NCBI GenBank assembly: GCA_037442865.1
Contig: JBBIPM010000002.1
Coordinates: forward strand, 1-35,865
DNA: 35,865 nt
Direction: 5' to 3'
From: Candidatus Woesearchaeota archaeon
Lineage (GTDB): Archaea; Nanobdellota; Nanobdellia; Woesearchaeales; UBA525
Below are positions 4,366-35,865 of this stretch, piece by piece. A program made the translations under genes and the position numbers. Each line of letters opens with the position of its first letter. Positions within the stretch are counted from its first letter, which is position 1. The notes beneath the pieces were generated by a model that saw only the letters and a list, made by a program, of their open reading frames with translations, ran no database searches and was not told the origin of the DNA.

Positions 4366-5166
4366 GTGCGCACCCTGATCATCGCTGATGTCACGTCGAA
4401 CCACGGTGGTGACTTGGACCTCGCTAGGCGATTCATCCGGACGGCGGCTGAGTGCGGCGCCGACTACATCAAGTTCCAGTCCTGGCGGGCGTGCAAGGTG
4501 CGGCTCTCGGATCCGCAGAAGGCGTGGTTCGAGAAGGCGGAACTGAAGGACGAAGACCATCGCATCCTGATCGAGGAATGCAAACGGCACGAGATAGGGT
4601 TCTTGACGACTATCTTCGACATTGAACGGATCGAGTTCCTTGCTTCGCTCGGGATCGACACGATCAAGGTGCCGAGCCCCGACGCCGCGAGCTACACGAT
4701 GCTCGCCGCGCTCAGGCAGCGGTTCAAGAATATCATCGTCTCGGTAGGCATGGCAACCGAACAGGAGATTAAGAAGACGACGGAACTCCTACGGTCCGGG
4801 CGATTCTCGCTTCTTCACTGCGTTTCCCTCTACCCCGTCCCGGACGACTTGGCGAATGTCCGGAAGATGCTCGCGCTCCGAGACTTCGCGGAGAGCGTCG
4901 GCTACAGCGATCACACGGTCGGCAACGACGCGGCGAAACTCGCCATCGCTCTCGGAGCGGCATACGTCGAGAAGCACTTTTGCCTCTCCCGTGACGGCAC
5001 GCTTGGTCGGAGCAACCCCTGGGACATGACGCCCGACGACCTGAGAGAGATATGCGGTTTTTCGCAGCGTGCGGAGCAGTTGCTGGGAGACGGCTCGCTC
5101 ATCGTGAGCGCCCAGGAACTGGAGAATCGGCCACGGTTTGTCGGACGTTGGGGGGACAACCGATGA
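4366..5166 (+). CDS. neuB: Nonulosonic (sialic) acid synthase, NeuB family; TIM-barrel domain only, no C-terminal SAF domain
   Basis: N-terminal signature IIADVTSNHGGDLDLARRFIRTAAECGADYIKFQ (NeuB: IAEIG.NHNGdl.lAk.li..A...GAd.vKFQ). Later motifs are KVPS, LLHCVSLYP and GYSDHT. It is 266 aa, with a GTG start behind a strong SD. Confidence 0.85.
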   Translation: MRTLIIADVTSNHGGDLDLARRFIRTAAECGADYIKFQSWRACKVRLSDPQKAWFEKAELKDEDHRILIEECKRHEIGFLTTIFDIERIEFLASLGIDTIKVPSPDAASYTMLAALRQRFKNIIVSVGMATEQEIKKTTELLRSGRFSLLHCVSLYPVPDDLANVRKMLALRDFAESVGYSDHTVGNDAAKLAIALGAAYVEKHFCLSRDGTLGRSNPWDMTPDDLREICGFSQRAEQLLGDGSLIVSAQELENRPRFVGRWGDNR

Positions 5167-6338
5167 AGTTGACCGCGATACTCCTCGACCATCATCAGCT
5201 CAGCAGGGAGTGCTTGGATGAATATGAAACGCGGACGAGGTCGCTCTGCGAGACCCTCGCGAAGCTCAGGATTGAGACTCTCCTCCTCACCAACAACCGC
5301 TATGCGTGGTCGCCGAGGACGGTCGAATTCCCGAACGAGCTCATCGATGCATGTCGCGAACGCGTCGTCCGCTATGCACTCCAACAGACGAGGATGACCG
5401 GTCCGATCATTGTTTTGGACCCTCGTTATGGCATCGCCCGAACGGACCTCGAGGAGGCGATCGTCTGCTACGGTGACCGTCCATCCATCCTCCTCACCGC
5501 GGGGAAGAACGGCGTAATCAACGAGGCGCTCCTCATCGCTGATGCGACAGCCTACGCAACGGATGGCGAGGAGGCGCTCTGCTACGAGGACCCTTATCTC
5601 CTCATGCTTTCCGAAGAGAAATCCTTTCCGCTCGGATGGTCGCGGGGACAGGAACTAGCATATACGACGGAACGCCAGCTTCATTTCGCGCGCATCTACC
5701 CAGACCGGATCGGCGAGGCGCTTGACGCGGACGCCAACAGTCCGGATGATTTGCTCCGCGCCTCCCGCGACAACCCTGAACGCGTCGCATGCATCGGTTC
5801 GATTCCTTCGGGTGAGCGTTGTCTCGACGTCGGTTGCAGCGATGGAGCAATCACGATCATCCTCGGCCGGAGCGGGAAACGGATCAAGGGCATCGACATC
5901 CTTCCTGAAGCGATTGAGAAGGCGAAGGCGCGGCTCGCCAAGGAACCAACCGAGATCCGGAAACGTGTCTCGTTCGCTTGTGTCCCCGCCGAATCCTTCT
6001 TGATGGGTGAGACGTTCGATACGATATATTTGACCGAGGTCCTCGAGCACATTCCAATCGACATCGACCGGCAGCTCCTTGCTAAGTACGCCTCGGCGCT
6101 CGCCCCCGGCGGCAACATGGTCGTCTCAGTTCCGAATCGGATGGCCGCCGAACGCTACGTCGCCGAACGACGGACAAGATGGTTTTTCGGCGGCCACGTC
6201 ACGCACTTCACCGCGCTCTCCCTTAAGCGCCTCCTCACCGAATACTTTTCCTCTGTCACGTTCCACACGCTGCCTGGCGACGAGCGGCCTCAAGACGGCG
6301 TCTTCCTCATCTGCGATTGCAAGGGGAGGAAACGATGA
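5163..6338 (+). CDS. Two-domain protein: ~230-aa N-terminal domain of unknown function fused to a class I SAM methyltransferase
   Basis: ATG 5163 overlaps the neuB stop (ATGA) and is preceded by GGGGGG at 5150-5155. The C-terminal half has class I methyltransferase motifs: CLDVGCSDGAITIILG (motif I), IYLTEVLEHIP, and LAPGGNMVVSVPN. I recognise no motif in the N-terminal half. Confidence 0.75.
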   Translation: MKLTAILLDHHQLSRECLDEYETRTRSLCETLAKLRIETLLLTNNRYAWSPRTVEFPNELIDACRERVVRYALQQTRMTGPIIVLDPRYGIARTDLEEAIVCYGDRPSILLTAGKNGVINEALLIADATAYATDGEEALCYEDPYLLMLSEEKSFPLGWSRGQELAYTTERQLHFARIYPDRIGEALDADANSPDDLLRASRDNPERVACIGSIPSGERCLDVGCSDGAITIILGRSGKRIKGIDILPEAIEKAKARLAKEPTEIRKRVSFACVPAESFLMGETFDTIYLTEVLEHIPIDIDRQLLAKYASALAPGGNMVVSVPNRMAAERYVAERRTRWFFGGHVTHFTALSLKRLLTEYFSSVTFHTLPGDERPQDGVFLICDCKGRKR

Positions 6339-7570
6339 GTTCCCGATCCGTAAACAGCGGATTGGTTGAGGACCGGTCAGGAATGATCTCCTCCTCCCAA
6401 AAGGGCGACGCGAAGAGGAGGCGGAAGGTGTGCGTCGTCATCGCGAGCAGGGCGCACTACGGTCGGCTCAAGCCCGTTCTCAATGCGATCTCCGAACACT
6501 CGCTCCTCGAACTCCAGCTGGTCGTCGGCGCCTCTGCGCTGCTACAACGATACGGAAACATCAGGAAGACCATAGAGGAAGACGGATTCACCGTGAAGAT
6601 GACCTATTACGCCATTCTTGAAGGAGAGAACCCTCTGACGATGGCCAAATCGACCGGCCTCGCGATAATGGAACTCTCGACGATCTTCGACAACCTGAAG
6701 CCGGACATCGTCCTGACCCACGCGGACCGCTACGAGACCCTCGCCACCGCGATCGCGGCCACGTACATGAATATACCCCTTGCCCATAATCAGGGTGGTG
6801 AGGTGACCGGCTCCATCGACGAGAGCGTGCGGCATGCCATCACGAAGCTCGCGCACATCCATCTCACCACCAACGAGGAGACTGCGCGCCGCATCATCGC
6901 CATGGGTGAGCCGGAGGAGACGGTCTTCATCACCGGGTGTCCTTCCATCGACCTCGTCAAGAGCCTTAGGCTGCGAATCGATGACGGATTCGATCGGCGA
7001 TATGCGTCGACGGGCGTGGGGACCCCTATCGATTTCCGGAAGCCCTATCTCGTTGTGATGCAGCATCCCGTCACGACGGAGTATGGCGCTGGTCTGCAGC
7101 AGGTGGAGGAGACCCTCGCCGCGATCGAGGACCTTCAGGTTCAGACCGCCTGGTTCTGGCCGAACGTGGATGCCGGTTCCGATGAGATCTCGAAGGGGTT
7201 GCGCCTCTTCCGCGAGCGCCACCGGAACGGGAACGTCCACTTCTTCAAGAACCTCCCTCCGGAGGATTTCTTGACGCTCATCGCTAACGCGGCATGCTGC
7301 GTCGGCAATTCGAGCAGCTTCATCCGCGAAGGCTCCTTCCTCGGCGTCCCCGCCGTCGAGATCGGCAGCCGGCAGGAAGGGCGTGCGGTCGCGGAGAACG
7401 TCCTCCGGGTCCCGAGCGATCGGGAGCGGATCCGGGCCGCCATCGAGCAACAGCTTGCCCACGGTCGCTATCCTTCCTCGACCCTCTACGGCGACGGGAA
7501 CGCGAGCGGGCGGATCGTCGAGGTCCTCGCTTCGTGCGAGCTCAAGATACAGAAGCGGATCACGTACTGA
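6335..7570 (+). CDS. neuC: UDP-N-acetylglucosamine 2-epimerase (hydrolysing), NeuC family
   Basis: ATG 6335 overlaps the upstream stop (ATGA), with the SD GGGGAGGA at 6323-6330. Epimerase_2 pattern: KVCVVIASRAHYGRLKPV..., HADRYETLATAIAATYMNIPLAHNQGGEVTGSIDESVRHAITKLAHIHL. Confidence 0.85.
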   Translation: MSSRSVNSGLVEDRSGMISSSQKGDAKRRRKVCVVIASRAHYGRLKPVLNAISEHSLLELQLVVGASALLQRYGNIRKTIEEDGFTVKMTYYAILEGENPLTMAKSTGLAIMELSTIFDNLKPDIVLTHADRYETLATAIAATYMNIPLAHNQGGEVTGSIDESVRHAITKLAHIHLTTNEETARRIIAMGEPEETVFITGCPSIDLVKSLRLRIDDGFDRRYASTGVGTPIDFRKPYLVVMQHPVTTEYGAGLQQVEETLAAIEDLQVQTAWFWPNVDAGSDEISKGLRLFRERHRNGNVHFFKNLPPEDFLTLIANAACCVGNSSSFIREGSFLGVPAVEIGSRQEGRAVAENVLRVPSDRERIRAAIEQQLAHGRYPSSTLYGDGNASGRIVEVLASCELKIQKRITY

Positions 7571-23003: not shown

Positions 23004-25931
23004 GTGACGATAAGAAAACAGAGGAAAAACCGGTCTGAGCCTGAAACCGAAGAGCGGGCGAAACAGGGCAAGGGGCCTGATCAGGGGTTGTTTGAGAAAG
23101 CCTCGCGTTTCTTCAGGCAGAATACTCGGATCTTGCTGTTTGGGCTCGTATTTCTGGCCATATTGATACCGGTGTTTCTCTCAATCCAGTACCGCAGTTT
23201 CGTCTATTCTTTGCCTGTGGCCGATGGCTGGGCGCAGAACACTATTAATCAAAACATCCGTTCTCAAGTGACCGCCAGCATACGGAACGATTTCCCTAAC
23301 CTGCCGGTTGCCAACCTGGAAAAGATGGTGGATGAGCAAGTAGATCGGTTCGTGGCCGATAACAAAGAAATTATAGAACAACAAGAGAAGCAATTGGCCG
23401 CTTATTTCCGTTCAAGGCTGCGGGAACCGGACGGTCATTCCTACTTGCCTGACTTGGACCCTTATCATTATGCGAAGAGGATTGATCTTACGCTCGCTAA
23501 TGGTTTTCCGGGTCATGAAAGAAGGGAGGGGCTGTATTGGAATAAACAGGCAGTAGCGCCACTAGGAATATTATCGGGACAAGATATGTTCACCTGGCTC
23601 AATGTACAGTTTTACAAGGTGGCCCGTATTTTCTTCGAGCTAGAGCCTCGGCACGTCCTGTTCTGGTTCAACCTCGTCTTTGCCTCCTTGAGCACAGTCC
23701 TTGCATTTCTCATAACGCGGCACAAAGGGTTGTTCGCCTCGTTCATAGCGGCTTTCCTGGTGGCGGTCCACCCTGGAAGCATCAGCAGAACCTCTGCAGG
23801 TGTTGGCGATACGGAGATATTCGCCCTCTTCTTCCCGTTGTTGGCGGCTTGGTTCTTGGTGGAGGCCTTAGAGACTGAGGAAGGCGATTGGAAACGGCTG
23901 GTCTTGATGCTCATCTTCTCAGGTCTCTCTTTCGGTCTCTTGGCACTTGCATGGGAATGGTGGTTCTTTTTCGTCGTCTTCATGGTCGCGCTGCTCTCGT
24001 TCGTAGTCTTCAGGATCGTGAGCCATTTCGTCAGGGGTGGAACGTTCACAGGGCTTTTTTCAAGCACGAAGATGAGGTGGGTGGCCGCGATTCCTGTCGG
24101 CATTTTCCTCAGCACCGGGTTCTTCGTATCCTTGTTCAGGGGTTTTGACGCGTTCGCGAGCGTCTTCCAAGCGATTATCGGACGAGTACAGTTAAAAGTG
24201 GCCATACAAGCGGGCGGCATCTGGCCGAACGTCATGACCACCGTCGCCGAGCTTAACGTGCCTAGCATAAGCGAGATAATCAACAATGCTGGTGGCAAGC
24301 TTCTTTTCGTACTGGCGGTCCTAGGCCTCGGCTTCGCAATGGTGCCGAAAGATCGGTTGAGGGTCAATGATTGGATTCTGCTCGGCTCTAGTCTACTGGC
24401 CGGCATCATCTTAGTATCGCATTTCGCCGCTGATTTCTCGATATTGAACTTCCTGATTATACTAGGTTTGCCGGTCGTTCTGGGTTGTTTTCTGCTTCTC
24501 AAAGAAGGCGATAAAGATGTTGACTTGGCTTACGCTCTGTTCCTGGCGGCTTGGCTGGGAGTGAGCATCTTCTCGATGACGAGAGGCGTCAGGTTCATCA
24601 GCCTACTTCTGCCTCCTTTCATACTGGCGGTCGCCTTAGGGCTCAACGGCACATACGTGCACCTAAAGCGGCTGTTTAGCGAGCACTTACCGACAGTGAT
24701 CGTTGTTCCTGTCCTCCTGATTTTGTTGATGGTGCCGCTCTACCCCGTGGCCGCGCAAGGCCGCGCGGTCGGTTTCCAGGCGACGCCGCACATGAGCGAT
24801 GCGTGGTGGGACTCCCTGACGCTCATCAAAGAGCAATCCGCTCCTGACGCGATCATCACCTCCTGGTGGGATTTCGGCCACTGGTTCCGGTACGTCGCCG
24901 ATCGTGGCGTCACGTTCGACGGCGCGTCGCAACGTGGTCAGCTCGCGCATTTCATCGGTCGTTCGTTGCAGACGAGCGACGAGAAGGAGACGCTCGCTAT
25001 CCTCCGCATGGTGGATTGCGGCTCCGATCGAGGCGGGGAGGAGCTCGAGTCGTTCCTCCCTTCGCAGGACCAGTACGAGGCGATCCTGCTCATGAAGCGG
25101 CTCATCCTCCTGACGCGCGCCGACGCTGAGAAGCTCCTCCTCGCGAACGGCCTCACCGATGAGCAAGCAGCCATCGTCCTGAACTACACCCATTGCGCTC
25201 CGCCTGAGGCGTATTTCATCACCTCCGGCGACATGGTGGGTAAAGCGGGCGTCTGGGGTCATTTCGGCAGTTGGAACTTCACGCGGGCGGACGCATACGC
25301 TAATTTCCATCGTCTGCCGCAGGCGACGGCTGTCGCGGGGATGAGTGCGAAGTACGGTCTCTCCGAGGATGATGCGTCTGTGCTCTATTATGATATGCTG
25401 CGATTGCCGACCGAGCCGCAGGTCAACTCCTGGATCAGCCCCTGGCCGGGGTATGCCACTGGCGTCGTCGGGTGCAACGATGAGAACGGGACGCGGCTCC
25501 TCTGCGGTTTCAACTTGCAGCTCAATTCCCAGGCTGCCGGTCGCTCGGTCTTGGAGGGGCTCGTCGTCAACATCTCCGATCCCGGCGCCTCGTTCTTTGT
25601 TGTCACGACGTATGATGCGCAGGGTCGTCGCGTCCAGTCGACGACCGAGGTGCGTCCGGAGCGGCTCCTCCTTATCCGGAACGGCACTTTGGGCGAGGTC
25701 CGGTTCCCTGACGGCGGTTTCGGTATGGCGGTCGTCGTCGACCTGGATGGGAAACGCGCGATCATGGCTGATCCGCTCCTCGCCGGCAGCCTCTTCACCC
25801 GGCTTTTCTTCTTCGACGGCGCCGGCACGGTCGCGTTCGAGAAGTTCAGCGACCAGACGACGTTCACCGGGAGCAGGATCATCGTCTGGAAGGTGGATTG
25901 GTCCAAGCTCGAGGAGCTGGGCTTGGCGTAG
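23004..25931 (+). CDS. aglB: Archaeal oligosaccharyltransferase AglB (STT3 family)
   Basis: 975 aa. It has a polytopic N-terminal domain of ~13 TM helices containing LDPYHY and GDTE acidic-loop motifs. The diagnostic WWDFGH (WWDxG) motif lies at 24864-24881, at the start of a soluble C-terminal domain. Confidence 0.92.
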   Translation: MTIRKQRKNRSEPETEERAKQGKGPDQGLFEKASRFFRQNTRILLFGLVFLAILIPVFLSIQYRSFVYSLPVADGWAQNTINQNIRSQVTASIRNDFPNLPVANLEKMVDEQVDRFVADNKEIIEQQEKQLAAYFRSRLREPDGHSYLPDLDPYHYAKRIDLTLANGFPGHERREGLYWNKQAVAPLGILSGQDMFTWLNVQFYKVARIFFELEPRHVLFWFNLVFASLSTVLAFLITRHKGLFASFIAAFLVAVHPGSISRTSAGVGDTEIFALFFPLLAAWFLVEALETEEGDWKRLVLMLIFSGLSFGLLALAWEWWFFFVVFMVALLSFVVFRIVSHFVRGGTFTGLFSSTKMRWVAAIPVGIFLSTGFFVSLFRGFDAFASVFQAIIGRVQLKVAIQAGGIWPNVMTTVAELNVPSISEIINNAGGKLLFVLAVLGLGFAMVPKDRLRVNDWILLGSSLLAGIILVSHFAADFSILNFLIILGLPVVLGCFLLLKEGDKDVDLAYALFLAAWLGVSIFSMTRGVRFISLLLPPFILAVALGLNGTYVHLKRLFSEHLPTVIVVPVLLILLMVPLYPVAAQGRAVGFQATPHMSDAWWDSLTLIKEQSAPDAIITSWWDFGHWFRYVADRGVTFDGASQRGQLAHFIGRSLQTSDEKETLAILRMVDCGSDRGGEELESFLPSQDQYEAILLMKRLILLTRADAEKLLLANGLTDEQAAIVLNYTHCAPPEAYFITSGDMVGKAGVWGHFGSWNFTRADAYANFHRLPQATAVAGMSAKYGLSEDDASVLYYDMLRLPTEPQVNSWISPWPGYATGVVGCNDENGTRLLCGFNLQLNSQAAGRSVLEGLVVNISDPGASFFVVTTYDAQGRRVQSTTEVRPERLLLIRNGTLGEVRFPDGGFGMAVVVDLDGKRAIMADPLLAGSLFTRLFFFDGAGTVAFEKFSDQTTFTGSRIIVWKVDWSKLEELGLA

Positions 25932-26975: not shown

Positions 26976-27213
26976 GCTTCGGCACGTCGTGGTCGGCGTT
27001 AAACCTCTTGGTCGACGGCGATCCTCTCTCCTTCGTCGTTCTCCACATCTTACTATGGAGCTACTTTTTGGCACTGTTGCCGCGGCGAGAGCTCGGCTCA
27101 GGTCATGGCAGGACGCGACCGAGTCATACGCAATCCTCCGGGGCATCGATGGCCCCGCCAAGGCGGCAAAAGTGCCGGTAGTGACGAGAAGCGCTATTAC
27201 GCTCTTCGCGATG

Positions 27214-27229
27214 AAAAAATATTAATATT
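27214..27229 (+). promoter_or_regulatory. TATA box for the SET-domain gene
   Basis: AAAAAATATTAATATT is centred ~28 nt upstream of the in-frame GTG at 27249. Confidence 0.45.
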
Positions 27230-27248
27230 GGCTTCTTGGTGTGAGGAC

Positions 27249-27767
27249 GTGCCTGATTTCCTCATCTCCTCTTCGCCGTTCGGTCTCGGCGTCGTCGCCG
27301 GCAGACGTTTCCGTCGCGGCGAACCGCTCTTCCCCTTCACCGGGGAGCGTCTGAAGAAAGAGGAGCTTCCCGTGATCTTCGCTCCCGAGGATGATCGGTA
27401 TGTCCGGGTCGGGCAGGATTTTTTCTTCGACCCTTCCGGTGGCTTTGACGATTGCTTTGACGATTTCGTGAACCATTCCTGCGATCCGAATTGCGGTCTC
27501 GTCTTCGACGGCGATCGCGTCCAGCTGGTGGCGATCCGGATGATTGCGCCGGGAGAGGAGCTGTTCTGGGATTATTCGACGACCATGGACGAGGATGGCT
27601 GGGAGTTGGCGTGCCGTTGCGGCTCTCCGCTCTGTCGCGGCAGGGTGAAGGATTTCAAGCATCTCCCCGTTCCGCTTCGTCTCCGGTACGCGAAGCTCGG
27701 CATCATCCCGCCGTACCTTCTCCGGTACGTCCCTGCTGTCATGCTCGTTTCGAATCGTGTCGCCTGA
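27249..27767 (+). CDS. SET-domain protein-lysine methyltransferase
   Basis: NHSCDPNC lies at 27471-27494 and ELFWDYS follows. A post-SET Cys cluster, CRCGSPLC, lies at 27612-27635. The start is uncertain. GTG 27249 fits the TATA spacing. The track ATG 27105 adds ~48 aa in which roughly half the codons are A/T-ending. TTG 27228 is also in frame. Confidence 0.8.
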   Translation: MPDFLISSSPFGLGVVAGRRFRRGEPLFPFTGERLKKEELPVIFAPEDDRYVRVGQDFFFDPSGGFDDCFDDFVNHSCDPNCGLVFDGDRVQLVAIRMIAPGEELFWDYSTTMDEDGWELACRCGSPLCRGRVKDFKHLPVPLRLRYAKLGIIPPYLLRYVPAVMLVSNRVA

Positions 27768-28856: not shown

Positions 28857-28868
28857 GTTTTTAAATAG
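28857..28868 (+). promoter_or_regulatory. TATA box for the first TSP3 surface-protein gene (leaderless spacing)
   Basis: GTTTTTAAATAG is centred ~28 nt upstream of the ATG at 28891. Confidence 0.55.
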
Positions 28869-28890: not shown

Positions 28891-30093
28891 ATGGCCGCTC
28901 CGCGCTCCACTTCCCCGCATCCCTGTCGCGTCACCGCGCCGCGCCAACGCGCCCCCAGCACAGCCTCCTCTTCCTCCCGCGCCATCCCCTCCTTCCTGCT
29001 CTGCACCCTCTCCTTCCTCCTCGCTTTTTCCCTCCCCTCCACGCTTGCCGTCATCTACCACGACTACTACGGCCCCTACGGCGGCGACCCCTGGCTCACC
29101 TGGGACGAGGATTACCGGCTCAACAACAAGAGCCACGCCACGCCGCCCTTCGCCCCCCGGCCGAGCTTCGGCGGCTGCTACATCGCCCAAGGGAGCGGCG
29201 TGCTCCTCGACGACCTCGACTGCGACAAGGTCCCTGATGTGTCTGACAACTGCCGCGGCGTCCCGAACACCGACCAGCGCGACCAGAACAAGAACGGGCT
29301 GGGCGACGCCTGCGACCTCGTCGTGGACGCGATCAGGATCGACCCCGGCGTCGTCCTCGAGGACCGGCCGTTCATCGTCACCGCTGCGCTGACGAACTAC
29401 CGTGCGCTGCCGATCAGCAACATCGAGCTCACTATCCAGGTGCCGGAGCTGGGGCTGGACCAGAAAGCGTATGTCGACCGGCTTGAACCCGGGCAGCAGG
29501 GACGCTACGAATTCTTCCTCCGCGTCCCCGGCTGCACCGTCGCGAAGGAGTACGACGTCGTCCTCTTCATCGCCTTCCCGCAGAGCCCCGGCGTGAAGGA
29601 GTTCTTCTACATCCCGACGCGGATGGCGGTCCAGAGCAACGGGCTCTGCCAGGAGGAGCCCACGCTCCGGGGGAAGAGCATCATCACCATCCTCGACGTC
29701 CAGGACATCGACCCGGTGCTGGGCGGCTCCTACCCCTTCACCATTGTGAATGGCGAGCCCGAGAGTCAGGCGTATGTCCTCACCGTCCAGGGCACTGAGG
29801 AGTGGGGGAGCTACCTCATCGAGCCCCGCTCCCTGATCGTCGTTCCTGCCGGCGAGACGCGCGAAGGGCGCCTCACGCTCTTCGCGAAGAAAGGCGTGAC
29901 GGGCGAGCACGGCTTCATCCTGACGTTGCGGAGCAAAGCGGATGCGCAGCAGCTCGTCCTCTCCGCCCGCGTCAAGGACGAGCTCCCGGGACGGAGCCTC
30001 GCTTCGTGGCTCCAGTTCGGCATCTTCATCCTCTGCGCCATCATCCTCGTCGCGGCCTTCGCGCTCCTCCATCTGAAACGCGGAAAACGTTAG
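28891..30093 (+). CDS. Membrane-anchored surface protein: thrombospondin type-3-like calcium-binding repeat plus CARDB-like beta-sandwich domains
   Basis: It has a long signal or anchor region (...FLLCTLSFLLAFSLPSTLA). The TSP3 signature DDLDCDKVPDVSDNCRGVPNTDQRDQNKNGLGDACD lies at 29209-29316. About 250 aa of beta-rich sequence follows, then a C-terminal TM helix (WLQFGIFILCAIILVAAFALL) and a basic stop-transfer (HLKRGKR). Confidence 0.8.
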   Translation: MAAPRSTSPHPCRVTAPRQRAPSTASSSSRAIPSFLLCTLSFLLAFSLPSTLAVIYHDYYGPYGGDPWLTWDEDYRLNNKSHATPPFAPRPSFGGCYIAQGSGVLLDDLDCDKVPDVSDNCRGVPNTDQRDQNKNGLGDACDLVVDAIRIDPGVVLEDRPFIVTAALTNYRALPISNIELTIQVPELGLDQKAYVDRLEPGQQGRYEFFLRVPGCTVAKEYDVVLFIAFPQSPGVKEFFYIPTRMAVQSNGLCQEEPTLRGKSIITILDVQDIDPVLGGSYPFTIVNGEPESQAYVLTVQGTEEWGSYLIEPRSLIVVPAGETREGRLTLFAKKGVTGEHGFILTLRSKADAQQLVLSARVKDELPGRSLASWLQFGIFILCAIILVAAFALLHLKRGKR

Positions 30094-30264
30094 CGTCCGC
30101 TTCTGTTTCCCGTTCTCGCTCTTCTTCCTCGACGGTCCGTAGAACGTCTCTGGCACTTCGTTGGAGAACGCGCGTTCGGTTCCGTGGCGAGGAACCGGGG
30201 AACGGTGACTACGGAGCCAATGCGCGGCGGTCGATGCGCCCTTGTCTCTTCCGACGATACTCAG

Positions 30265-30366
30265 TTCTCCTTCTCCTCCTCTCTCTTTCTTCCGTTCCCC
30301 TTTTTTTCTCTTTCATTTTTTTCTCCCTTTTCCCCTCTCTTTTTCTCTCTCCCTTTTACCTTTTCA
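30265..30366. repeat. ~100-bp near-pure polypyrimidine (plus strand) / polypurine tract
   Basis: ttctccttctcctcctctctctttcttccgttcccctttttttctctttcatttttttctcccttttcccctctctttttctctctcccttttaccttttc has only a handful of purines. It ends ~35 nt before the TATA box of the next gene. Confidence 0.9.
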
Positions 30367-30398
30367 TTACCACTACCAAATAGTTAAAAAACCAATAC

Positions 30399-30409
30399 TT
30401 TTATAAATG
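30399..30409 (+). promoter_or_regulatory. TATA box for the second TSP3 surface-protein gene (leaderless spacing)
   Basis: CTTTTATAAAT is centred ~29 nt upstream of the ATG at 30433. Confidence 0.55.
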
Positions 30410-30432
30410 CTGTTCCTCTCCCTCACCGCACC

Positions 30433-31572
30433 ATGGGAGATAGATTGTCCATCACGCTCGTCGCGCTCGTCGCGTCCTTGCTCATCGCACTGCCCGCCGC
30501 GCTTGCGGACCAGGTCCAGAACGGCTTCCCAATCGACGGATGCGCCCTCGAGACGCCCCACGGCCTCGTCAACGACCGGGACTGCGACGGCGTCGACGAC
30601 TTCCGCGACAACTGCAAATACAGGCCGAACAGCGACCAGCGCGACGCCAACCGGAACGGGATCGGCGACGCTTGCGACCTGCTCGTCACCCAGATACTCC
30701 TCCAGCCCGGGACCGAGGTGCAGCAAGGAGCGTTCTTCACCGTCAGGGTCCAGCTGATCAACAACAAGGCCTACGAGATCACCGACCTCCAGGCACGCAT
30801 CAGGAACAACGCGCTCGACATCGACGTCAGCACCTTCGTCGAGCGGATGAAGCCAGGCGAGCAGCGGACGATCGACTTCATCGCGAAAGCCCCGGGCTGC
30901 GCCCCGCCGCGGAACTACGAGCTGGCGTTCACCACTGACCACAAGGAAGGAGGAAAGGCCTACACCCAGACGCGCTACCAGCAGATCACGCTCCTCAAGA
31001 AGGACGGGGCCTGCACCCCGGTCGCCGGGACGCTGCAGAACACCCTCGTCGACACCTTCACCGGCCAAGAGGTCGAGCCGGGCGGCACCGTCATCTACCC
31101 GATCACGATCACCAACCTGAACAGCCAGGCGAAGACCTACACGGTCAGTGTCGAGCCGATCAACCATCTCGGCACCTACCGGCTCGATCCGGAGAGCACC
31201 GTGACGGTCGACGCAGGCAGGAGCGCCACACTCTTCCTCTTCCTCCAGACGGAGCGGTTCGCCCCGCCCGGACGGAACCAGATCCAGCTCGTCATCGAGA
31301 CCGGGAACGAGCGCGAGACGACGACGCTCAACCTCCGCGTGGTCAACGGGAGGGGGGTCCCGCTCGCCAGGATACTCTTCACCGCGCTCCAGGTGGCGCT
31401 CATACTCCTCGTGCTGGCGCTTATTATCGGCGCCGGCATCGTCGCGTACAGGAAACTGAACGCGGAATACGAGGGGGCGACAGGCGAGAAGCCGCGACGC
31501 TCACGTGGCGAGAAGCACGGAAAGCCGGCCGTCGAGGATGTCGCTGATGATGAGTTCCAGAGCTACTACTGA
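30433..31572 (+). CDS. Paralogous membrane-anchored surface protein: TSP3-like repeat plus CARDB-like domains and an acidic cytoplasmic tail
   Basis: The signal peptide is LVALVASLLIALPAALA. The TSP3 signature NDRDCDGVDDFRDNCKYRPNSDQRDANRNGIGDACD lies at 30571-30678. Beta-sandwich-like segments follow, then a TM helix (ILFTALQVALILLVLALIIGAGIVA) and a ~50-aa charged tail. Confidence 0.85.
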   Translation: MGDRLSITLVALVASLLIALPAALADQVQNGFPIDGCALETPHGLVNDRDCDGVDDFRDNCKYRPNSDQRDANRNGIGDACDLLVTQILLQPGTEVQQGAFFTVRVQLINNKAYEITDLQARIRNNALDIDVSTFVERMKPGEQRTIDFIAKAPGCAPPRNYELAFTTDHKEGGKAYTQTRYQQITLLKKDGACTPVAGTLQNTLVDTFTGQEVEPGGTVIYPITITNLNSQAKTYTVSVEPINHLGTYRLDPESTVTVDAGRSATLFLFLQTERFAPPGRNQIQLVIETGNERETTTLNLRVVNGRGVPLARILFTALQVALILLVLALIIGAGIVAYRKLNAEYEGATGEKPRRSRGEKHGKPAVEDVADDEFQSYY

Positions 31573-31582
31573 GGTGGACCTG

Positions 31583-34500
31583 ATGAAGCAGCCACGCGCA
31601 TCCCTGACCTACCCGCTCCTCCTGTTCGCGCTCCTGTTGACGATCCTCGTCATGCCGGCGCAGGCCGCGATGATCGTGAACACCTACACGAACGACTTCT
31701 CCGTGGAGAGCCCCTACGCCTCCGAGCCGAAGGCGTGCGCCTGCGAGAGCCGCGCCGACCGGGTGACAGTGACCAACACCGGCGCTTTCCTCTCCTCCTA
31801 CACAGTCAGCGTCCACTCAGAGCAGCCCTGGTACCAGCTCCAAGGAGGTGGGTTCACCCTCGCGCCGGGCGAGAGCCGCGACGTCCTCGTCTACGCAGAG
31901 CCGCCTTGCGACGCCACCGGCACATCGCGCTACAGCATCAGGGTCGCGTCGAGCTACGGCCGCGAACGGGTCCTGAGCAGGACCCTCGATGTGAAGAAGT
32001 GCCAGAACGCGTTCCTCACCGTCCAGGGCGGCGTCGAGGAGTCGAACCTCTGCCAGCCCCTCGAGTACATGGTGACGGTCCGGAACGTCGCGGAGTTCGC
32101 CGATACCTTCACCCTCGACTTCGGCGCATTCAACGCGTACGCTGACCTCAAAGAGCGGAGCTTCTCCCTCGTCCCGGACGAGCAGCGGAAACTCCTCGTC
32201 ACGATCACGCCGCCCTGCAGCCTCTACGGCGAGATTAGCATCCCGTTCATCGTCACTAGCGAGAAGAACAAGGTGACTGAGCAGAAGGAGATGCGCCTCG
32301 TCATCGAGAACCAGTTTGACCACGACATATCGATCGCGACCCAGACGGAGATCTGCAGCCGGATCGCGTCCCGATACACGTTCAACATCACCAACCTCAT
32401 CGACGTGCCGAATACGTATGATGTGATCGTCACCGGCCCGGGCTTCCTCGACTACGACCCGAAGCAGCTCGAGCTGAAGGGCCACGAATCGAAGCAGGTC
32501 ACCCTGACGCTGAACCCGAAGAAGGGGCAGGAAGGGACGCACGAGGTGAAGGTGAAGGTCCGGAGCAGGCTCGGCGAGATCACCAAGACGCGCGTCCTCG
32601 ACGTGGACGTCTTCGACTGCTTCGCCTACGAATTCGGCTTCGTCGAGCAGGCACGCGACAAGGACGGGTCGTACGCCGAGGTGGCCTGCTGCGGCGAGAC
32701 GAGCTACACCCTTAACCTCCGGAACGCGGGGCAGACGGAAGAGACCTACAACCTCCTCGTCGACGGCCCGAGCTGGTTCCAGCCCGAGGAACGGACGATC
32801 AGGCTGAAGCCGAGCGAGAACCGGAACGTCCGGTTCGCGGCGCGCCTCCCCTGCACCGACGAGCGGTACGAGCTGCCCGTCACCGTCGTCCTCACCAACC
32901 ACCCGGAGATCGCGGACACCATCATCTTCCGGGTCGAGAGCCAGACGCTCCAGACGTGCCATGCCGTCGAGGCGAGCGTGACGAGCGTCACCATCGCCGA
33001 GGACGACGCCATCGTCCCCTTCCTCGTCAAGAGCACCGGCATCCAGGGCGGGACGTACCGCGTCGCGGTAGACGGAGAGCTCTACGCCGCGGTCTCCGAG
33101 GAGCGGATCACCCTCGCCCCGGGCGAGGAGAAGGCGCTCCACCTCATCACGAAAGGGAACCTGACCGACTACTTCGACGGCAAGTACCTCAGCATGCTCA
33201 CCCTGACGCATGAGCCGCTCGGCCTCGAGTATGCGCAGCCATTCTGGACGCGGTTCGCGCACAACGGGTTGCTCGTCACGGCGTGGCGCGCCCTTGCCGG
33301 CTACGACTACGCGAGCGTCGCGCTCTGCCTCTGGGCGATGCTCCTCCTCGCGCTGCTCGTCATCGCGACGGTCATTATCATCATCCTGACGCTGCTCGGA
33401 GTCCTGCGGCGGCCGAAGATCGACGCGACGCTCCTCTGGGCGCTCCGCGTCGCCCTCCTTGTCGTCGTGGCGCTCCTCATCATCCTCCTCGTCGTCCTCC
33501 CCCTCCCGGCGAAAGACGGGCTCTATGAGGATCGTCTCGAGGACGACGAGTCGGGAATGCTCCTCCAATGGTACGAGAACGAGCGGTTCACCCTGGACCT
33601 GGCGCAGTACTTCGCCGATCCGGACGACGACCGTCTCGAGTTCTTCGCGACGCAGCCGGCGCACGTCCGCGTCGTCATCACCGGAAGCACCGCGACGCTG
33701 ATCCCTGACGCGAACTGGGGGGGCGAGGAGTCCCTCATCTTCACCGCCTCGGACCAGCGCGGCGGCTACACGGACAGCCCGCTCTTCACGCTCAGTGTCC
33801 TCCGCAGGACCGAGTTGACGTTTGGCCAGTGGCTGGCGCGGTACTGCCGCCACCTCAACCTGGCGCTCCTCCTCGTTCTGGCGCTCCTCTGGCTCCTCTG
33901 GCTCTTTCTCGCCAAGCAGGAGGTGAAGCCGCCACGGGAGCAGAAAAAAGGGGGCGTTCACACCGTCGTCGCGAAGGAAGGAGCCGTCCGCAAGCTCGGC
34001 GTCGGCGCTTCTCACCCTCCGTCACCCGTCGATCCGCAGAGCGCGCGGAGCTTGGACCAGGCGTTCGTCGCCTGCGGCCAGGAGCACGAGATGCGCTCCG
34101 TCCTGAAGGCGCACGGGAAGCGCGCCACGAAAGGGAACATCGCCACCGTCCAGGCGGCGTGCCGCGCCTTCAAAGCCGACACGCGATGGACGCCGAACAA
34201 TCGGGAGACGTTCTACCGTTATCTCTCCGCGAACAGGACTCTCGCGAAGCTCGAGAGCAAGGCCGAGAGCAAGGAGAGGCCGCTCGTCGACGAACTGAAC
34301 GCGACCCGTCCGCGTCGTGGACGCCCGCCGCGCCGCGGATCAGCCGCATCAGCCCTGGCGTTCGTCCCTACGCGGAGCGCCCGTCGAGTGGATGAGCGCG
34401 TCGAGGTGCCGCAGCAGTACGTCGAGACGCCGTCCCCGTTCACCCAAGTGAACGTCGCGGTGGGAGCAAATCTCGCCACGGAACGGAAGGAGTTTGTCCT

Positions 34501-34651
34501 GATTGGCGCCAAGAACGGGAACAAGGTCCACGACCCGGAGTGCATGATCGCCCACCGGATCCCGCGGAAGAACCGCGTCACCTTCACGAGCAAGGAGGCA
34601 GCGCAGGCGGGCTACGGCCCGTGCAAGGTCTGCCAAGCGTTCGGTGCGTGA
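31583..34651 (+). CDS. Giant polytopic surface protein: five or more beta-sandwich modules, three TM helices, second ectodomain, and a basic cytoplasmic tail with an AT-hook-like motif and an Ada-type zinc module
   Basis: ATG 31583 is preceded by GAGGTGG (31571-31577), and the track start at 31505 is an over-extension. The signal peptide is LLLFALLLTILVMPAQA. Repeated ~100-aa modules have recurring Cys positions (KACAC...PPCDATG; NLCQP...PPCSLYG; VACCG...LPCTDER). TM helices lie at about 33318-33405, 33427-33510 and 33853-33915. RPRRGRPPRRG lies at 34307-34339. KVHDPECMIAHRIPRKNRVTFTSKEAAQAGYGPCKVCQ lies at 34523-34636. Confidence 0.85.
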   Translation: MKQPRASLTYPLLLFALLLTILVMPAQAAMIVNTYTNDFSVESPYASEPKACACESRADRVTVTNTGAFLSSYTVSVHSEQPWYQLQGGGFTLAPGESRDVLVYAEPPCDATGTSRYSIRVASSYGRERVLSRTLDVKKCQNAFLTVQGGVEESNLCQPLEYMVTVRNVAEFADTFTLDFGAFNAYADLKERSFSLVPDEQRKLLVTITPPCSLYGEISIPFIVTSEKNKVTEQKEMRLVIENQFDHDISIATQTEICSRIASRYTFNITNLIDVPNTYDVIVTGPGFLDYDPKQLELKGHESKQVTLTLNPKKGQEGTHEVKVKVRSRLGEITKTRVLDVDVFDCFAYEFGFVEQARDKDGSYAEVACCGETSYTLNLRNAGQTEETYNLLVDGPSWFQPEERTIRLKPSENRNVRFAARLPCTDERYELPVTVVLTNHPEIADTIIFRVESQTLQTCHAVEASVTSVTIAEDDAIVPFLVKSTGIQGGTYRVAVDGELYAAVSEERITLAPGEEKALHLITKGNLTDYFDGKYLSMLTLTHEPLGLEYAQPFWTRFAHNGLLVTAWRALAGYDYASVALCLWAMLLLALLVIATVIIIILTLLGVLRRPKIDATLLWALRVALLVVVALLIILLVVLPLPAKDGLYEDRLEDDESGMLLQWYENERFTLDLAQYFADPDDDRLEFFATQPAHVRVVITGSTATLIPDANWGGEESLIFTASDQRGGYTDSPLFTLSVLRRTELTFGQWLARYCRHLNLALLLVLALLWLLWLFLAKQEVKPPREQKKGGVHTVVAKEGAVRKLGVGASHPPSPVDPQSARSLDQAFVACGQEHEMRSVLKAHGKRATKGNIATVQAACRAFKADTRWTPNNRETFYRYLSANRTLAKLESKAESKERPLVDELNATRPRRGRPPRRGSAASALAFVPTRSARRVDERVEVPQQYVETPSPFTQVNVAVGANLATERKEFVLIGAKNGNKVHDPECMIAHRIPRKNRVTFTSKEAAQAGYGPCKVCQAFGA

Positions 34652-34655
34652 GCGG

Positions 34656-35177
34656 ATGGGAACTCCTCCGAACCCTCGTGATCTCGAGCTCTTTTTCTCG
34701 TCTCTCGCTCCCTATTCGCCCGTCGCCTCTTTGCTCGCCGAGAAGTGCCGAGAACCCGGTGTCGGCGAGCGGTCGGCCAGCTCCCCTCCCGTCACGGGCT
34801 CCCCGTCCTTCGCGCATCACTCGAACATCTCGTTCGACCCCTTGACCGCTATCGCGAACGGGAACCTTCCGATCGAGTCTTTCCGATCAACCGACCCTTT
34901 CCAACTGCTCGACATCTTCGTCGATCCCGGTACGTATGATCCCTGCTCTCGTCGTTTCCGGCCAGAACCGTTCACCACGGAGAGAGGGGTGAAGGTGCGG
35001 TACGAACCCGACCGAGGCCTCTTCATCCCCACCAATCTCCTCTTTCGCGCCCTTAATCTGCTGGTCGGAGATGCGTATTGCGGAGTCTCTCTCTCGAAGA
35101 ACTTCTTTCTGACCGGGCGCGGCGGGGAGCACCCTTCAGGGAGGCGGATAACCGGCTTTTACGGTTGGTCTCTCTAA
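34656..35177 (+). CDS. Hypothetical protein, possibly translationally coupled to the giant surface-protein gene
   Basis: The ORF overlaps or abuts the upstream stop: GTG 34644 or ATG 34656 against the stop at 34649-34651. Third codon positions are strongly C/G-biased (ctc, ttc, atc, gac, ccc), like confirmed genes. I recognise no domain. Confidence 0.45.
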   Translation: MGTPPNPRDLELFFSSLAPYSPVASLLAEKCREPGVGERSASSPPVTGSPSFAHHSNISFDPLTAIANGNLPIESFRSTDPFQLLDIFVDPGTYDPCSRRFRPEPFTTERGVKVRYEPDRGLFIPTNLLFRALNLLVGDAYCGVSLSKNFFLTGRGGEHPSGRRITGFYGWSL

Positions 35178-35371: not shown

Positions 35372-35632
35372 TCACCGGAAGAACTGGATGAAGAGGAGCC
35401 GGAGCAGGTCGTCCTTGCTCTTGCAGAGCTCGATGTTCCGCGCCAGGAACCGATCCTGCATCACCTCTTTGACCCAGGTGGCGAAATCGTTCCGCCCTTG
35501 TCCGGTGTGGTGCTCCCAGACATGGCGTTCCATGGTCTGGAGCTCGGTGAAGAGGTCCTCGAGCGAAGCGAGAGTCCCTCCCTCGTGGAGGTAGAAGTGC
35601 TTCTCGGTGTCGGTCACTGCATACGTCGCCAT
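35372..35632 (-). CDS. Small conserved-looking hypothetical protein (86 aa)
   Basis: It has balanced amino-acid composition and strong C/G third-position bias. The pattern FYLHEGG.L.SLEDL...L..M....W.HH...GRNDFATWV resembles a small archaeal domain I recall as DUF5752-like, but this is unverified. AGGAG lies ~18 nt upstream, and a TATA-like GTTTATAAATC lies at 35680-35690. Confidence 0.6.
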   Translation of the reverse strand: MATYAVTDTEKHFYLHEGGTLASLEDLFTELQTMERHVWEHHTGQGRNDFATWVKEVMQDRFLARNIELCKSKDDLLRLLFIQFFR

Positions 35633-35865
35633 TGTCGTCGATAATCGTCTCCTTTAGACGCCGGAACGGCCAGAATCCGTTTATAAATCTTTCTTTTTGT
35701 CTCTCTGTCGCAATAACGGGTGATGATTCTTAAGTCGAATGCGGGTGATAAGCTGATTTTATTCAAATTTTAGCTCTTTCCGGTTTTGTTGAAAGGTTCG
35801 GAAGGATTATATAGCCACTTATCGTCGACAAAGTGTCAAATCTCAGACGACAACAGAGGTGGCTA

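Follow-up and report, generated by a model that had tools for sequence, protein, structure and literature searches.

The stretch of DNA analysed here, hereafter the window, comprises 35,865 nucleotides (nt) of a Candidatus Woesearchaeota archaeon (assembly GCA_037442865.1, contig JBBIPM010000002.1, positions 1 to 35,865 of the forward strand) and carries, downstream of a glycosylation island that includes aglB, three genes on the + strand which we call P1 (28891-30093), P2 (30433-31572) and P3 (31583-34651). The analysis showed that P1, P2 and P3 constitute a lineage-specific, Sec-exported and membrane-embedded envelope module of the Woesearchaeota/Nanoarchaeia (DPANN archaea) that is built of immunoglobulin-like (Ig-like) domains and has P2-P3 as its core. 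An initial annotation of the window had described four + strand open reading frames (ORFs), these three and P4 (34656-35177), as one co-regulated envelope structure whose subunits are plausible substrates of AglB. All four ORFs are indeed present and encode 400, 379, 1022 and 173 amino acids (aa), respectively, and the idea of a conserved surface or envelope assembly was borne out, but P4 is probably not a part of it and the link to AglB as the modifying enzyme is weak.

When homologues of P3 were sought by a word-indexed search, 16 close ones with 46-59% identity were found, and a profile search of 1.84 billion representative sequences returned 716 proteins at E<=1e-30, of which more than 100 matched in a single stretch covering profile positions ~5-780 and were 750-870 aa long. 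Because more than 100 proteins span it, the core of P3, which consists of a signal peptide, five Ig-like domains, a transmembrane hairpin, a Big_9 domain and a third transmembrane helix (TM3), represents a large family with hundreds of proteins. Most members of this family (750-870 aa) stop shortly past TM3 without a long tail, and the long cytoplasmic tail of P3 is an addition specific to the clade of the window. By their record titles and names the family members are all DPANN archaea, being labelled Candidatus Woesearchaeota, Nanoarchaeia or just 'archaeon', and the GC content of the relatives ranges from 30% to 60%.

The order of the genes is conserved along with their sequences. In close relatives whose P3 is 49-56% identical to that of the window (loci L001/2, L003/4 and L005/10) the order was AglB, a GT2 glycosyltransferase, an epimerase on the - strand, P1, a variable slot, P2, P3, a second variable slot and a gene for an 86-aa protein on the - strand, and in L011 the order GT2, epimerase, P1, P2 and P3 was retained with other genes where AglB would be. 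In distant relatives whose P3 is 22-38% identical (L012, L021-L025, L028, L029 and L031) a P2-like gene likewise stood immediately before the P3-like gene, both being encoded on one strand. Altogether, 23 of 24 loci (about 20 of them distinct) had a P2-like gene just ahead of a P3-like one, with gaps of 1-178 nt, usually 4-26 nt. All three of P1, P2 and P3 were seen side by side in L001-5, L009-11, L023, L024 and L026 as well as in the window; a P1-type paralogue was not found within 3.6 kb in L007 and was absent in L012. A closer P3 alignment search provided 7 metagenome loci, and three distant P2-like proteins came from a word-indexed search that started from a diverse P2 alignment. The initial annotation had proposed conservation of the four-gene order in related genomes as its own test, and what was found is that P1-P2-P3 is conserved, most strongly in its P2-P3 part, whereas no P4 homologue occurs in any of these loci. 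The co-location of homologues shows that P2-P3 is a core two-gene operon, translationally coupled, with P1 as a frequent third member. One of the loci, L006 (CAZSAS010000111.1, 3.8 kb), carries P2 and P3 as a pair of the usual kind (59% and 56% identity) but belongs to a metagenome-assembled genome (MAG) labelled 'uncultured Methanosarcinales archaeon', and this label is either the result of mis-binning or a hint of a physical association of a Woesearchaeon with a methanogen.

The features of P1, P2 and P3, of which those in P3 were assigned from an AlphaFold2 (AF2) model, hydropathy and Pfam, are as follows (TM1 and TM2 are the first two transmembrane helices of P3).

28891-30093, + strand: P1, a type I membrane protein of 400 aa and a paralogue of P2
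29203-29328, + strand: TSP3-type calcium-binding repeat of P1 (residues ~105-146)
30433-31572, + strand: P2, a type I membrane protein of 379 aa
30565-30681, + strand: TSP3-type calcium-binding repeat of P2 (residues 45-83)
31561-31569, + strand: codons of the C-terminal S-Y-Y-COOH of P2, preceded by the acidic run DDEFQ
31573-31577, + strand: GGTGG, located after the P2 stop and ahead of the P3 start and resembling a Shine-Dalgarno element
31583-34651, + strand: P3, a polytopic envelope protein of 1022 aa
P3 residues 1-32: signal peptide
31694-33259, + strand: P3 ectodomain of five tandem Ig-like beta-sandwiches (residues 38-137, 144-242, 247-344, 349-454 and 462-559)
33323-33505, + strand: transmembrane hairpin of P3 (TM1 ~581-604, a basic loop, TM2 ~615-641)
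33545-33817, + strand: Big_9/cadherin-like domain of P3, extracellular and membrane-proximal (residues ~655-745), with a YFxDPDxD motif
33845-33916, + strand: TM3 of P3 (residues ~755-778)
P3 residues 779-1022: cytoplasmic tail of ~245 aa
34034-34258, + strand: cytoplasmic helical module of P3, HEM...FYRYL (residues 818-892)
34514-34636, + strand: C-terminal Ada-like zinc motif of P3, VHDPEC...GYGPCKVC

P1 and P2 are paralogues with 33% identity over 244 aa (E 1e-39); P1 was shown to be an old paralogue of P2 that has its own promoter. P1 consists of a signal peptide, a conserved head, the TSP3 repeat, two Ig-like domains, a C-terminal transmembrane helix (377-395) and a short basic tail, and its head, YHDYYGPYGGD...NNKSHATPPF, holds one conserved N-glycosylation sequon (NKS79). 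P2 has a signal peptide (1-25), a hairpin with the TSP3 repeat (31-83), two Ig-like domains (84-188 and 204-303), a transmembrane helix (~311-340) and a cytoplasmic tail. In both proteins the Ig-like domains are of the FixG_C/NEW3/CARDB type of Pfam. The motif of the calcium-binding TSP3 repeat that the initial annotation had seen in the first two proteins is plainly there: the common motif D-x-D-C-D-G-x-D-D...N-G-x-G-D-x-C-D is framed by cysteines (DRDCDGVDDFRDNC...NRNGIGDACD), and all 20 P2 orthologues have the same D, N, G and C residues as ligands. Compared to the gathering score of 25 bits for TSP3 (PF02412), P2 with 24.0 bits and P1 with 18.1 bits fell just short, and the distant orthologue in L012 scored 25.9 bits. 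That P1, P2 and P3 carry signal peptides and are anchored by transmembrane helices was also correct in that all three were predicted to have transmembrane helices and a hydrophobic N-terminal signal cleaved at a site of the A-x-A type (by hydropathy and, for P2 and P3, as helices in the AF2 models, which are monomers with predicted local distance difference test scores of 71 and 73, respectively). P3, however, is not simply anchored, as it has three such helices and the ~245-aa tail. A PGF/PEF-CTERM archaeosortase signal had been said to be missing and no CTERM model matched P1, P2 or P3, nor were there any such matches to P1 or P2 when their isolated C-terminal peptides were searched at E<=10. 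The C-terminus of P1, with Q-F-G, the transmembrane helix and KRGKR, has the layout of an archaeosortase substrate without a model match, and P2 continues past its helix into a conserved 45-aa tail, unlike the short basic tail of archaeosortase substrates.

The last residues of P2 are [S/T]-Y-Y-COOH behind an acidic stretch, and in the window this end reads DDEFQSYY. The end S-Y-Y was present in 20 of 20 close orthologues and [S/T]-Y-Y in 21 of the 23 loci overall; distant P2-like proteins with ectodomains only 23-36% identical still end in QTYY, ETYY, KTYY or QSYY, and two further members of the family end in EPYY. P1-type paralogues have a short basic tail in place of this motif. The codons of the motif vary synonymously (TAC/TAT, AGC/AGT and ACN) and so does their distance to the P3 start, which argues that the constraint is on the protein and not on a ribosome-binding site.

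In P3, conservation across the wider family is highest in the Big_9/cadherin-like domain. All 16 close orthologues have the same thirteen cysteines in the ectodomain, most of which are retained over ~120 distant representatives. The invariant cysteines include a C-x-C pair (C52 and C54), a vicinal pair (C369-C370) and two, C582 and C755 (33845-33847), that lie at the outer ends of TM1 and TM3. These may be linked in a juxtamembrane disulfide or may bind a metal. In the cytoplasmic tail the helical module occurs in 1-3 copies among the orthologues, with three in L005, and it matched nothing in Pfam at E<=1 or in a PDB sequence search at E<=10; besides this module and the zinc motif the tail has a disordered stretch. 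The Ada-like motif is kept in 11 of 16 aligned P3 sequences and scored 20.3 bits against Ada_Zn_binding (PF02805; gathering score 23), its ligands being H-x-P-x-C...C-x2-C and not four cysteines. We also considered a transfer of the motif to the ORF of the downstream slot in those orthologues in which P3 is without it, but it was found only at the C-termini of P3. When the P3 and P2 models were compared by Foldseek with PDB and BFVD, the matches listed were generic tandem-Ig proteins only, with structural similarity scores (TM-scores) of 0.1-0.25, and they included ciliary ASH/hydin-type proteins, the S-layer protein SbsB, alpha-2-macroglobulins, RbmA and DUF11 proteins. A weak Pfam match of P3 to HAP2/GCS1 (E 0.004; 16.1 bits against a gathering score of 27.4) falls on the Ig-like part of that model. 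The identity of P3 as a HAP2/GCS1 fusexin was rejected, as the AF2 model is a linear array of five Ig-like domains and none of the 50 best matches listed for PDB, or of the 50 for BFVD, was a class II fusogen.

Of the signals that surround the genes, those upstream of P1 and P2 are as follows.

28860-28867, + strand: TATA-like box of P1, TTTAAATA, ending 24 nt 5' of the ATG
30400-30407, + strand: TATA-like box of P2, TTTATAAA, ending 26 nt 5' of the ATG
30094-30399, + strand: pyrimidine-rich spacer between P1 and P2 with T7 runs at ~30280-30370, resembling an archaeal oligo-T terminator

Leaderless promoters of their own had been claimed for P1 and P2, and TATA-like octamers were indeed located 24 and 26 nt before the two ATGs. 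The consensus TTTAWAWA occurred 11 times in the window compared to 0.38 expected from shuffles, and every copy was intergenic. From what is known of archaeal promoters, such spacing of the TATA box implies that the transcripts of P1 and P2 would be leaderless or nearly so. P1 and P2 are ~340 nt apart (30094-30432) and this gap is free of genes in the window; in relatives it is a variable slot occupied by unrelated genes, such as one of 209 aa in L001 (8152-8781), a NIF-phosphatase-like gene of 161 aa in L005 (8368-8853) and ~2.2 kb of other ORFs in L011 (7906-8712 noted). No matches were obtained in Rfam and tRNA scans of the window, and hence no non-coding RNA was seen in the spacers. At the P2-P3 junction, the proposed start of P3 10 nt past the P2 stop and behind a Shine-Dalgarno element was upheld, with GGTGG as the element, and GGTG is found at the equivalent position in most close relatives. 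A database gene call places the start of P3 at 31547, giving 1034 aa and an overlap with the 3' end of P2, but the alignment of the orthologues together with the GGTGG element favours 31583, the start given initially, as the probable true one.

When the conservation of P3 was broken down by region, the mean pairwise identity within the close clade was 0.52-0.65 for the Ig-like domains and 0.63 for Big_9, compared to 0.31-0.42 for the transmembrane segments and 0.38 for the cytoplasmic module. Between genomes, P1, P2 and P3, at 49-70% identity, were conserved at least as well as AglB, at 44-49%. In three GC-rich genomes P1-P3 had the strongest codon bias of their neighbourhood, with the highest GC content at third codon positions and the lowest effective number of codons (ENC), 30-37 compared to ~36-46, and a bias of this strength fits high expression.

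The relationship of the module to AglB was examined next to its sequons, and the gene concerned is listed here as context.

23004-25931, + strand: AglB/STT3 oligosaccharyltransferase

The aglB glycosylation island described upstream of P1 is real and comprises STT3/AglB, GT2, an epimerase, three GT4 glycosyltransferases, methyltransferases, asparagine synthase, NeuB, UDP-GlcNAc 2-epimerase and a flippase. The NeuB-type nonulosonic-acid synthase and the UDP-GlcNAc 2-epimerase (4366-5166 and 6317-7570) suggest that the glycans contain a sialic-acid-like sugar. A SET-domain gene (27105-27767, + strand; Pfam E 2.6e-17) between GT2 and the epimerase is absent there in all the syntenic relatives (L001-5, L010 and L011), which makes it a lineage-specific insertion into the island. 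The linkage of the module to aglB is limited to the closer clade: the two were neighbours in L001/2, L003/4 and L005/10 as well as in the window, with an inversion in L023, and were not adjacent in L011, L012 and L022. The N-x-S/T sequons pointed out in the ectodomains (NKS, NIT and NLT) are present, but sequons are no more frequent than expected by chance, with one in P1, none in P2 and two in the P3 ectodomain. In the ectodomains of 20 P2 orthologues, 13 of which have none, 11 sequons were observed and 49.5 were expected from composition; the Poisson probability of this depletion is ~4e-11 under a shuffled-composition null that ignores the relatedness of the sequences. In the P1 family there were 5 sequons compared to 7.3 expected, and the NKS position was conserved in 5 of 6 sequences. 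In the P3 family there were 88 compared to 72.6 expected, which is about chance, and conserved sequon columns were found at 152, 205, 305, 526 and 547, that at 526 in 16 of 16 sequences; the window P3 keeps only N526 (N526-L-T) of these five and its second ectodomain sequon, NIT268, is not conserved. None of P1, P2 and P3 has the richness in sequons that is taken as a mark of archaeal S-layer (surface layer) glycoproteins. The suggestion that the subunits are AglB substrates is thus contradicted for P2 and modestly supported for P1 by its one conserved NKS and for P3 by the conserved columns. Judged from these counts, P3, and P1 at one site, are plausible AglB clients, and P2 appears to be under selection to remain free of N-glycans.

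Downstream of P3 there are two genes of different standing.

34656-35177, + strand: P4, an ORF of 173 aa abutting the P3 stop, not conserved and with a weak coding signal
35372-35632, - strand: gene for a conserved cytoplasmic protein of 86 aa, convergent with P3

P4 does abut P3 as described, its ATG being 4 nt beyond the P3 stop, but it probably is not a component of the surface module. No homologue of P4 was found in any syntenic locus, either by tblastn or in an all-against-all comparison of the ORFs from the same slot, nor did Pfam give a supporting match, and P4 is a singleton cluster in the protein collection. The ORFs occupying this slot elsewhere are unrelated to P4 and to each other except for a 46-aa ORF common to L005 and L009. 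In P4 the GC content at third codon positions (GC3) was 0.70 and the ENC 45, compared to 0.90 and 33 for P1-P3; likewise, the slot ORFs have a low GC3, the lowest of the locus in 4 of 5 loci, and in three GC-rich genomes they are also among those with the highest ENC. With no homologue, no Pfam match and poor codon statistics, P4 was rejected as a member of the module. The 86-aa gene, on the other hand, is in the same position in at least 9 loci and lies near P2-P3 even in the distant L024 (42% identity); its product is 57-79% identical among close relatives, which is above the envelope genes, and its sole family match is a weak one to DUF5752. A palindromic TATA-like box at 35680-35687, at the 3' end of the window, probably serves this gene. 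The window is rich in AT at either end (1-1000 and 35640-35865), its first kilobase having a GC content of 0.39 compared to ~0.60 overall.

The explanation that we tentatively prefer, though we hold it with a little less than even confidence, is that P1-P3 form a heteromeric structural scaffold of the envelope, which would be the wall itself or, more likely, a layer of pillars or anchors beneath an outer lattice. P1 and P2 are predicted to have two Ig-like domains each, capped by a cysteine-knotted calcium-binding TSP3 loop, and P3 is predicted to be a five-Ig rod with three membrane crossings and a cadherin-like domain laid on the membrane surface. P2 and P3 would assemble into a calcium-stabilised heteromeric array between the membrane and the outermost layer, and this array may be an S-layer-type wall or, more probably, the anchoring or pillar layer under one. 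The ectodomains of P1-P3 would then be tightly packed protein-protein interfaces, which would account both for their higher conservation relative to the transmembrane segments and for the exclusion of N-glycan sites from P2 in spite of its being encoded beside aglB. The acidic [S/T]-Y-Y-COOH tail of P2 may dock to a cytoplasmic partner, for which the basic loops of P3, the tail of P3 or a soluble protein are candidates, and in this way tie the array to the cell interior. Conserved exposed domains, avoidance of glycans by P2, calcium caps, translational coupling and codon bias fit a dense and abundant structural assembly better than a diversifying adhesin, and P1-P3 have the features of the S-layer class in their Sec signal peptide, their extracellular Ig-like array and their attachment by transmembrane helices. 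Several points weigh against this scaffold. Its function is drawn from predicted architecture, and the contact of P2 with P3 and the partner of the Y-Y tail are putative since the models are of single chains. Archaeal S-layer proteins are usually rich in sequons and evolve fast, and P1-P3 do neither. Codon bias is a weak proxy for expression and was not seen in the low-GC L001 and L023. A structure-prediction survey assigned an MSTP-like beta-sandwich S-layer protein to Nanoarchaeota (bioRxiv 10.1101/2024.05.28.596244) and, as no match to MSTP/DUF1608 was found for P1-P3 in Pfam or NCBIfam scans, P1-P3 may not be the lattice itself. In a metatranscriptome study of Woesearchaeota 'S-layer protein genes' were among the top-expressed, but these are not linkable to the P1-P3 family.

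Of the other explanations, a complex for host attachment or cell-cell contact is possible but doubtful; P1-P3 would be adhesins, the TSP3 and cadherin-like calcium sites would mediate contact, and the P3 tail would report on or stabilise the junction. DPANN archaea are mostly episymbionts, and when proteins for contact with the host are sought, it is usually Ig-rich ones of the surface that are proposed (bioRxiv 10.1101/2023.10.27.564410), but host-facing adhesins usually diversify, and here the ectodomains are the most conserved parts, on a level with the housekeeping neighbours. The TSP3 repeats resemble the myxobacterial cell-cohesion protein MtsC (NF047638, E ~1e-7); these matches, however, cover only the generic TSP3 repeat and reach ~30 bits compared to a cut-off of 350. 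Similarly, the cadherin-like Big_9 domain of P3 is suggestive of a contact protein but it faces the cell's own membrane, between TM2 and TM3, and the binning of the L006 contig with a Methanosarcinales MAG, which could reflect such contact, may be simple mis-binning of a 3.8-kb contig. A bolder form of the scaffold explanation is that P2-P3 is the principal wall-building or anchoring complex of Woesearchaeota, with P3 as a polytopic five-Ig pillar, P2 as its glycan-free and calcium-capped partner and the [S/T]-Y-Y tail as a clamp of the envelope to a cytoplasmic partner or, more boldly still, that it is a junction coupling the symbionts to host cells; we regard this as unlikely.

We give little credence to P3 being a transmembrane receptor or signalling device whose ectodomain senses a ligand or the state of the envelope and whose helical modules and Ada-like zinc motif relay the signal, possibly to nucleic acid, with P2 as a co-receptor. 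The ~245-aa cytoplasmic tail of this clade, with its 1-3 helical modules and Ada_Zn_binding-like motif, and the invariant P2 tail, which looks like a docking peptide, speak for such a device. However, since most members of the P3 family are without the tail, it is a clade-specific addition and not the core function, the match to Ada remains below the Pfam threshold (20.3 bits compared to 23), and among the genes conserved near P2-P3 there is none for signalling, be it a kinase, a response regulator or another such protein. Equally improbable is the explanation of the initial annotation, that four co-regulated genes encode the major substrates of the adjacent AglB, as a set of S-layer glycoproteins. 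It draws on the adjacency of aglB in the window and in four other lineages, on the one conserved P1 sequon and on the five conserved sequon columns of the P3 family, but P4 is not conserved, P2 is depleted in sequons to the extent given above, their number in P1 and P3 is at chance level, and the linkage to AglB is lost in L011, L012 and L022.

Woesearchaeota are tiny and are among the most widespread uncultured archaea. The two-gene cassette, being found group-wide, offers concrete targets for antibodies, for assignment of densities in cryo-electron tomography, for proteomics and for multimer modelling. It combines features that are unusual, namely a polytopic Ig-rod protein, a partner that shuns N-glycan sites beside an oligosaccharyltransferase gene and an invariant cytoplasmic Y-Y-COOH tail, and it cautions that closeness to aglB does not identify the substrates of AglB. 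The interest would be greater if P2-P3 proved to be the Woesearchaeal wall or a host junction; in the former case the principal wall complex of a very large uncultured group would be built on a new principle.

According to a preprint, experiments have not yet established the S-layer or an envelope protein in any of the DPANN archaea (bioRxiv 10.1101/2023.10.27.564410). The family model NF033506, 'PACE-CTERM-PROT, putative S-layer protein', which is from DPANN archaea, is matched over its C-terminal half (two Ig-like domains and a transmembrane anchor) by P1, P2 and the first P3 domain, with 32 bits for P1, 57 for P2, 43 for P3 and 99 for the P2-like protein of L022, all under the curated cut-off of 110. 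The last positions of the model were unmatched, P2 running instead into its long tail that ends in [S/T]-Y-Y. The name 'S-layer' in this model is an annotation and not an experimental result, and the members of the P1-P3 family are distant relatives below its cut-off. Our literature search found no paper that mentions PACE-CTERM, and the titles and abstracts returned for DPANN thrombospondin had nothing on DPANN surface proteins. The S-layer proteins SlaA and SlaB of Sulfolobales are alike in being products of co-transcribed, Ig-rich envelope genes of which one encodes a stalk partner with a C-terminal transmembrane anchor (PMC10903991, as summarised in bioRxiv 10.1101/2023.10.27.564410). They have no sequence relationship to P2-P3, in which both proteins are membrane-embedded and P3 is polytopic with a cytoplasmic tail, and they are heavily N-glycosylated whereas P2 avoids sequons. 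The candidate DPANN S-layer proteins (MJ1_0160 and MJ1_0707 of Nanobdella, NEQ300 and Micr_00292) belong to the same broad group, being Ig-fold proteins of ~1000 aa with five Ig-like folds or having a C-terminal transmembrane anchor (bioRxiv 10.1101/2023.10.27.564410). Compared by description only, MJ1_0160 has 15 predicted glycosylation sites and no transmembrane helix, whereas P3 has two ectodomain sequons and three such helices. With the HAP2/GCS1 fusexins the sole likeness is the weak Pfam match to the Ig-like part of the model. The archaeal 'uncharacterized membrane proteins' with NEW3/NPCBM_assoc and FixG_C domains have the same domain types and the same layout of signal peptide, Ig-like domains and C-terminal transmembrane helix; the names given to such relatives in the sources, 'NEW3 domain-containing protein' and 'uncharacterized membrane protein', carry no function. 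The present family is set apart from these proteins by its TSP3 cap, by the Y-Y tail and by an obligate partnership with P3. The family is uncharacterised and its combination of features is unusual, yet it is of a familiar kind, that of archaeal membrane-anchored Ig-fold surface proteins.

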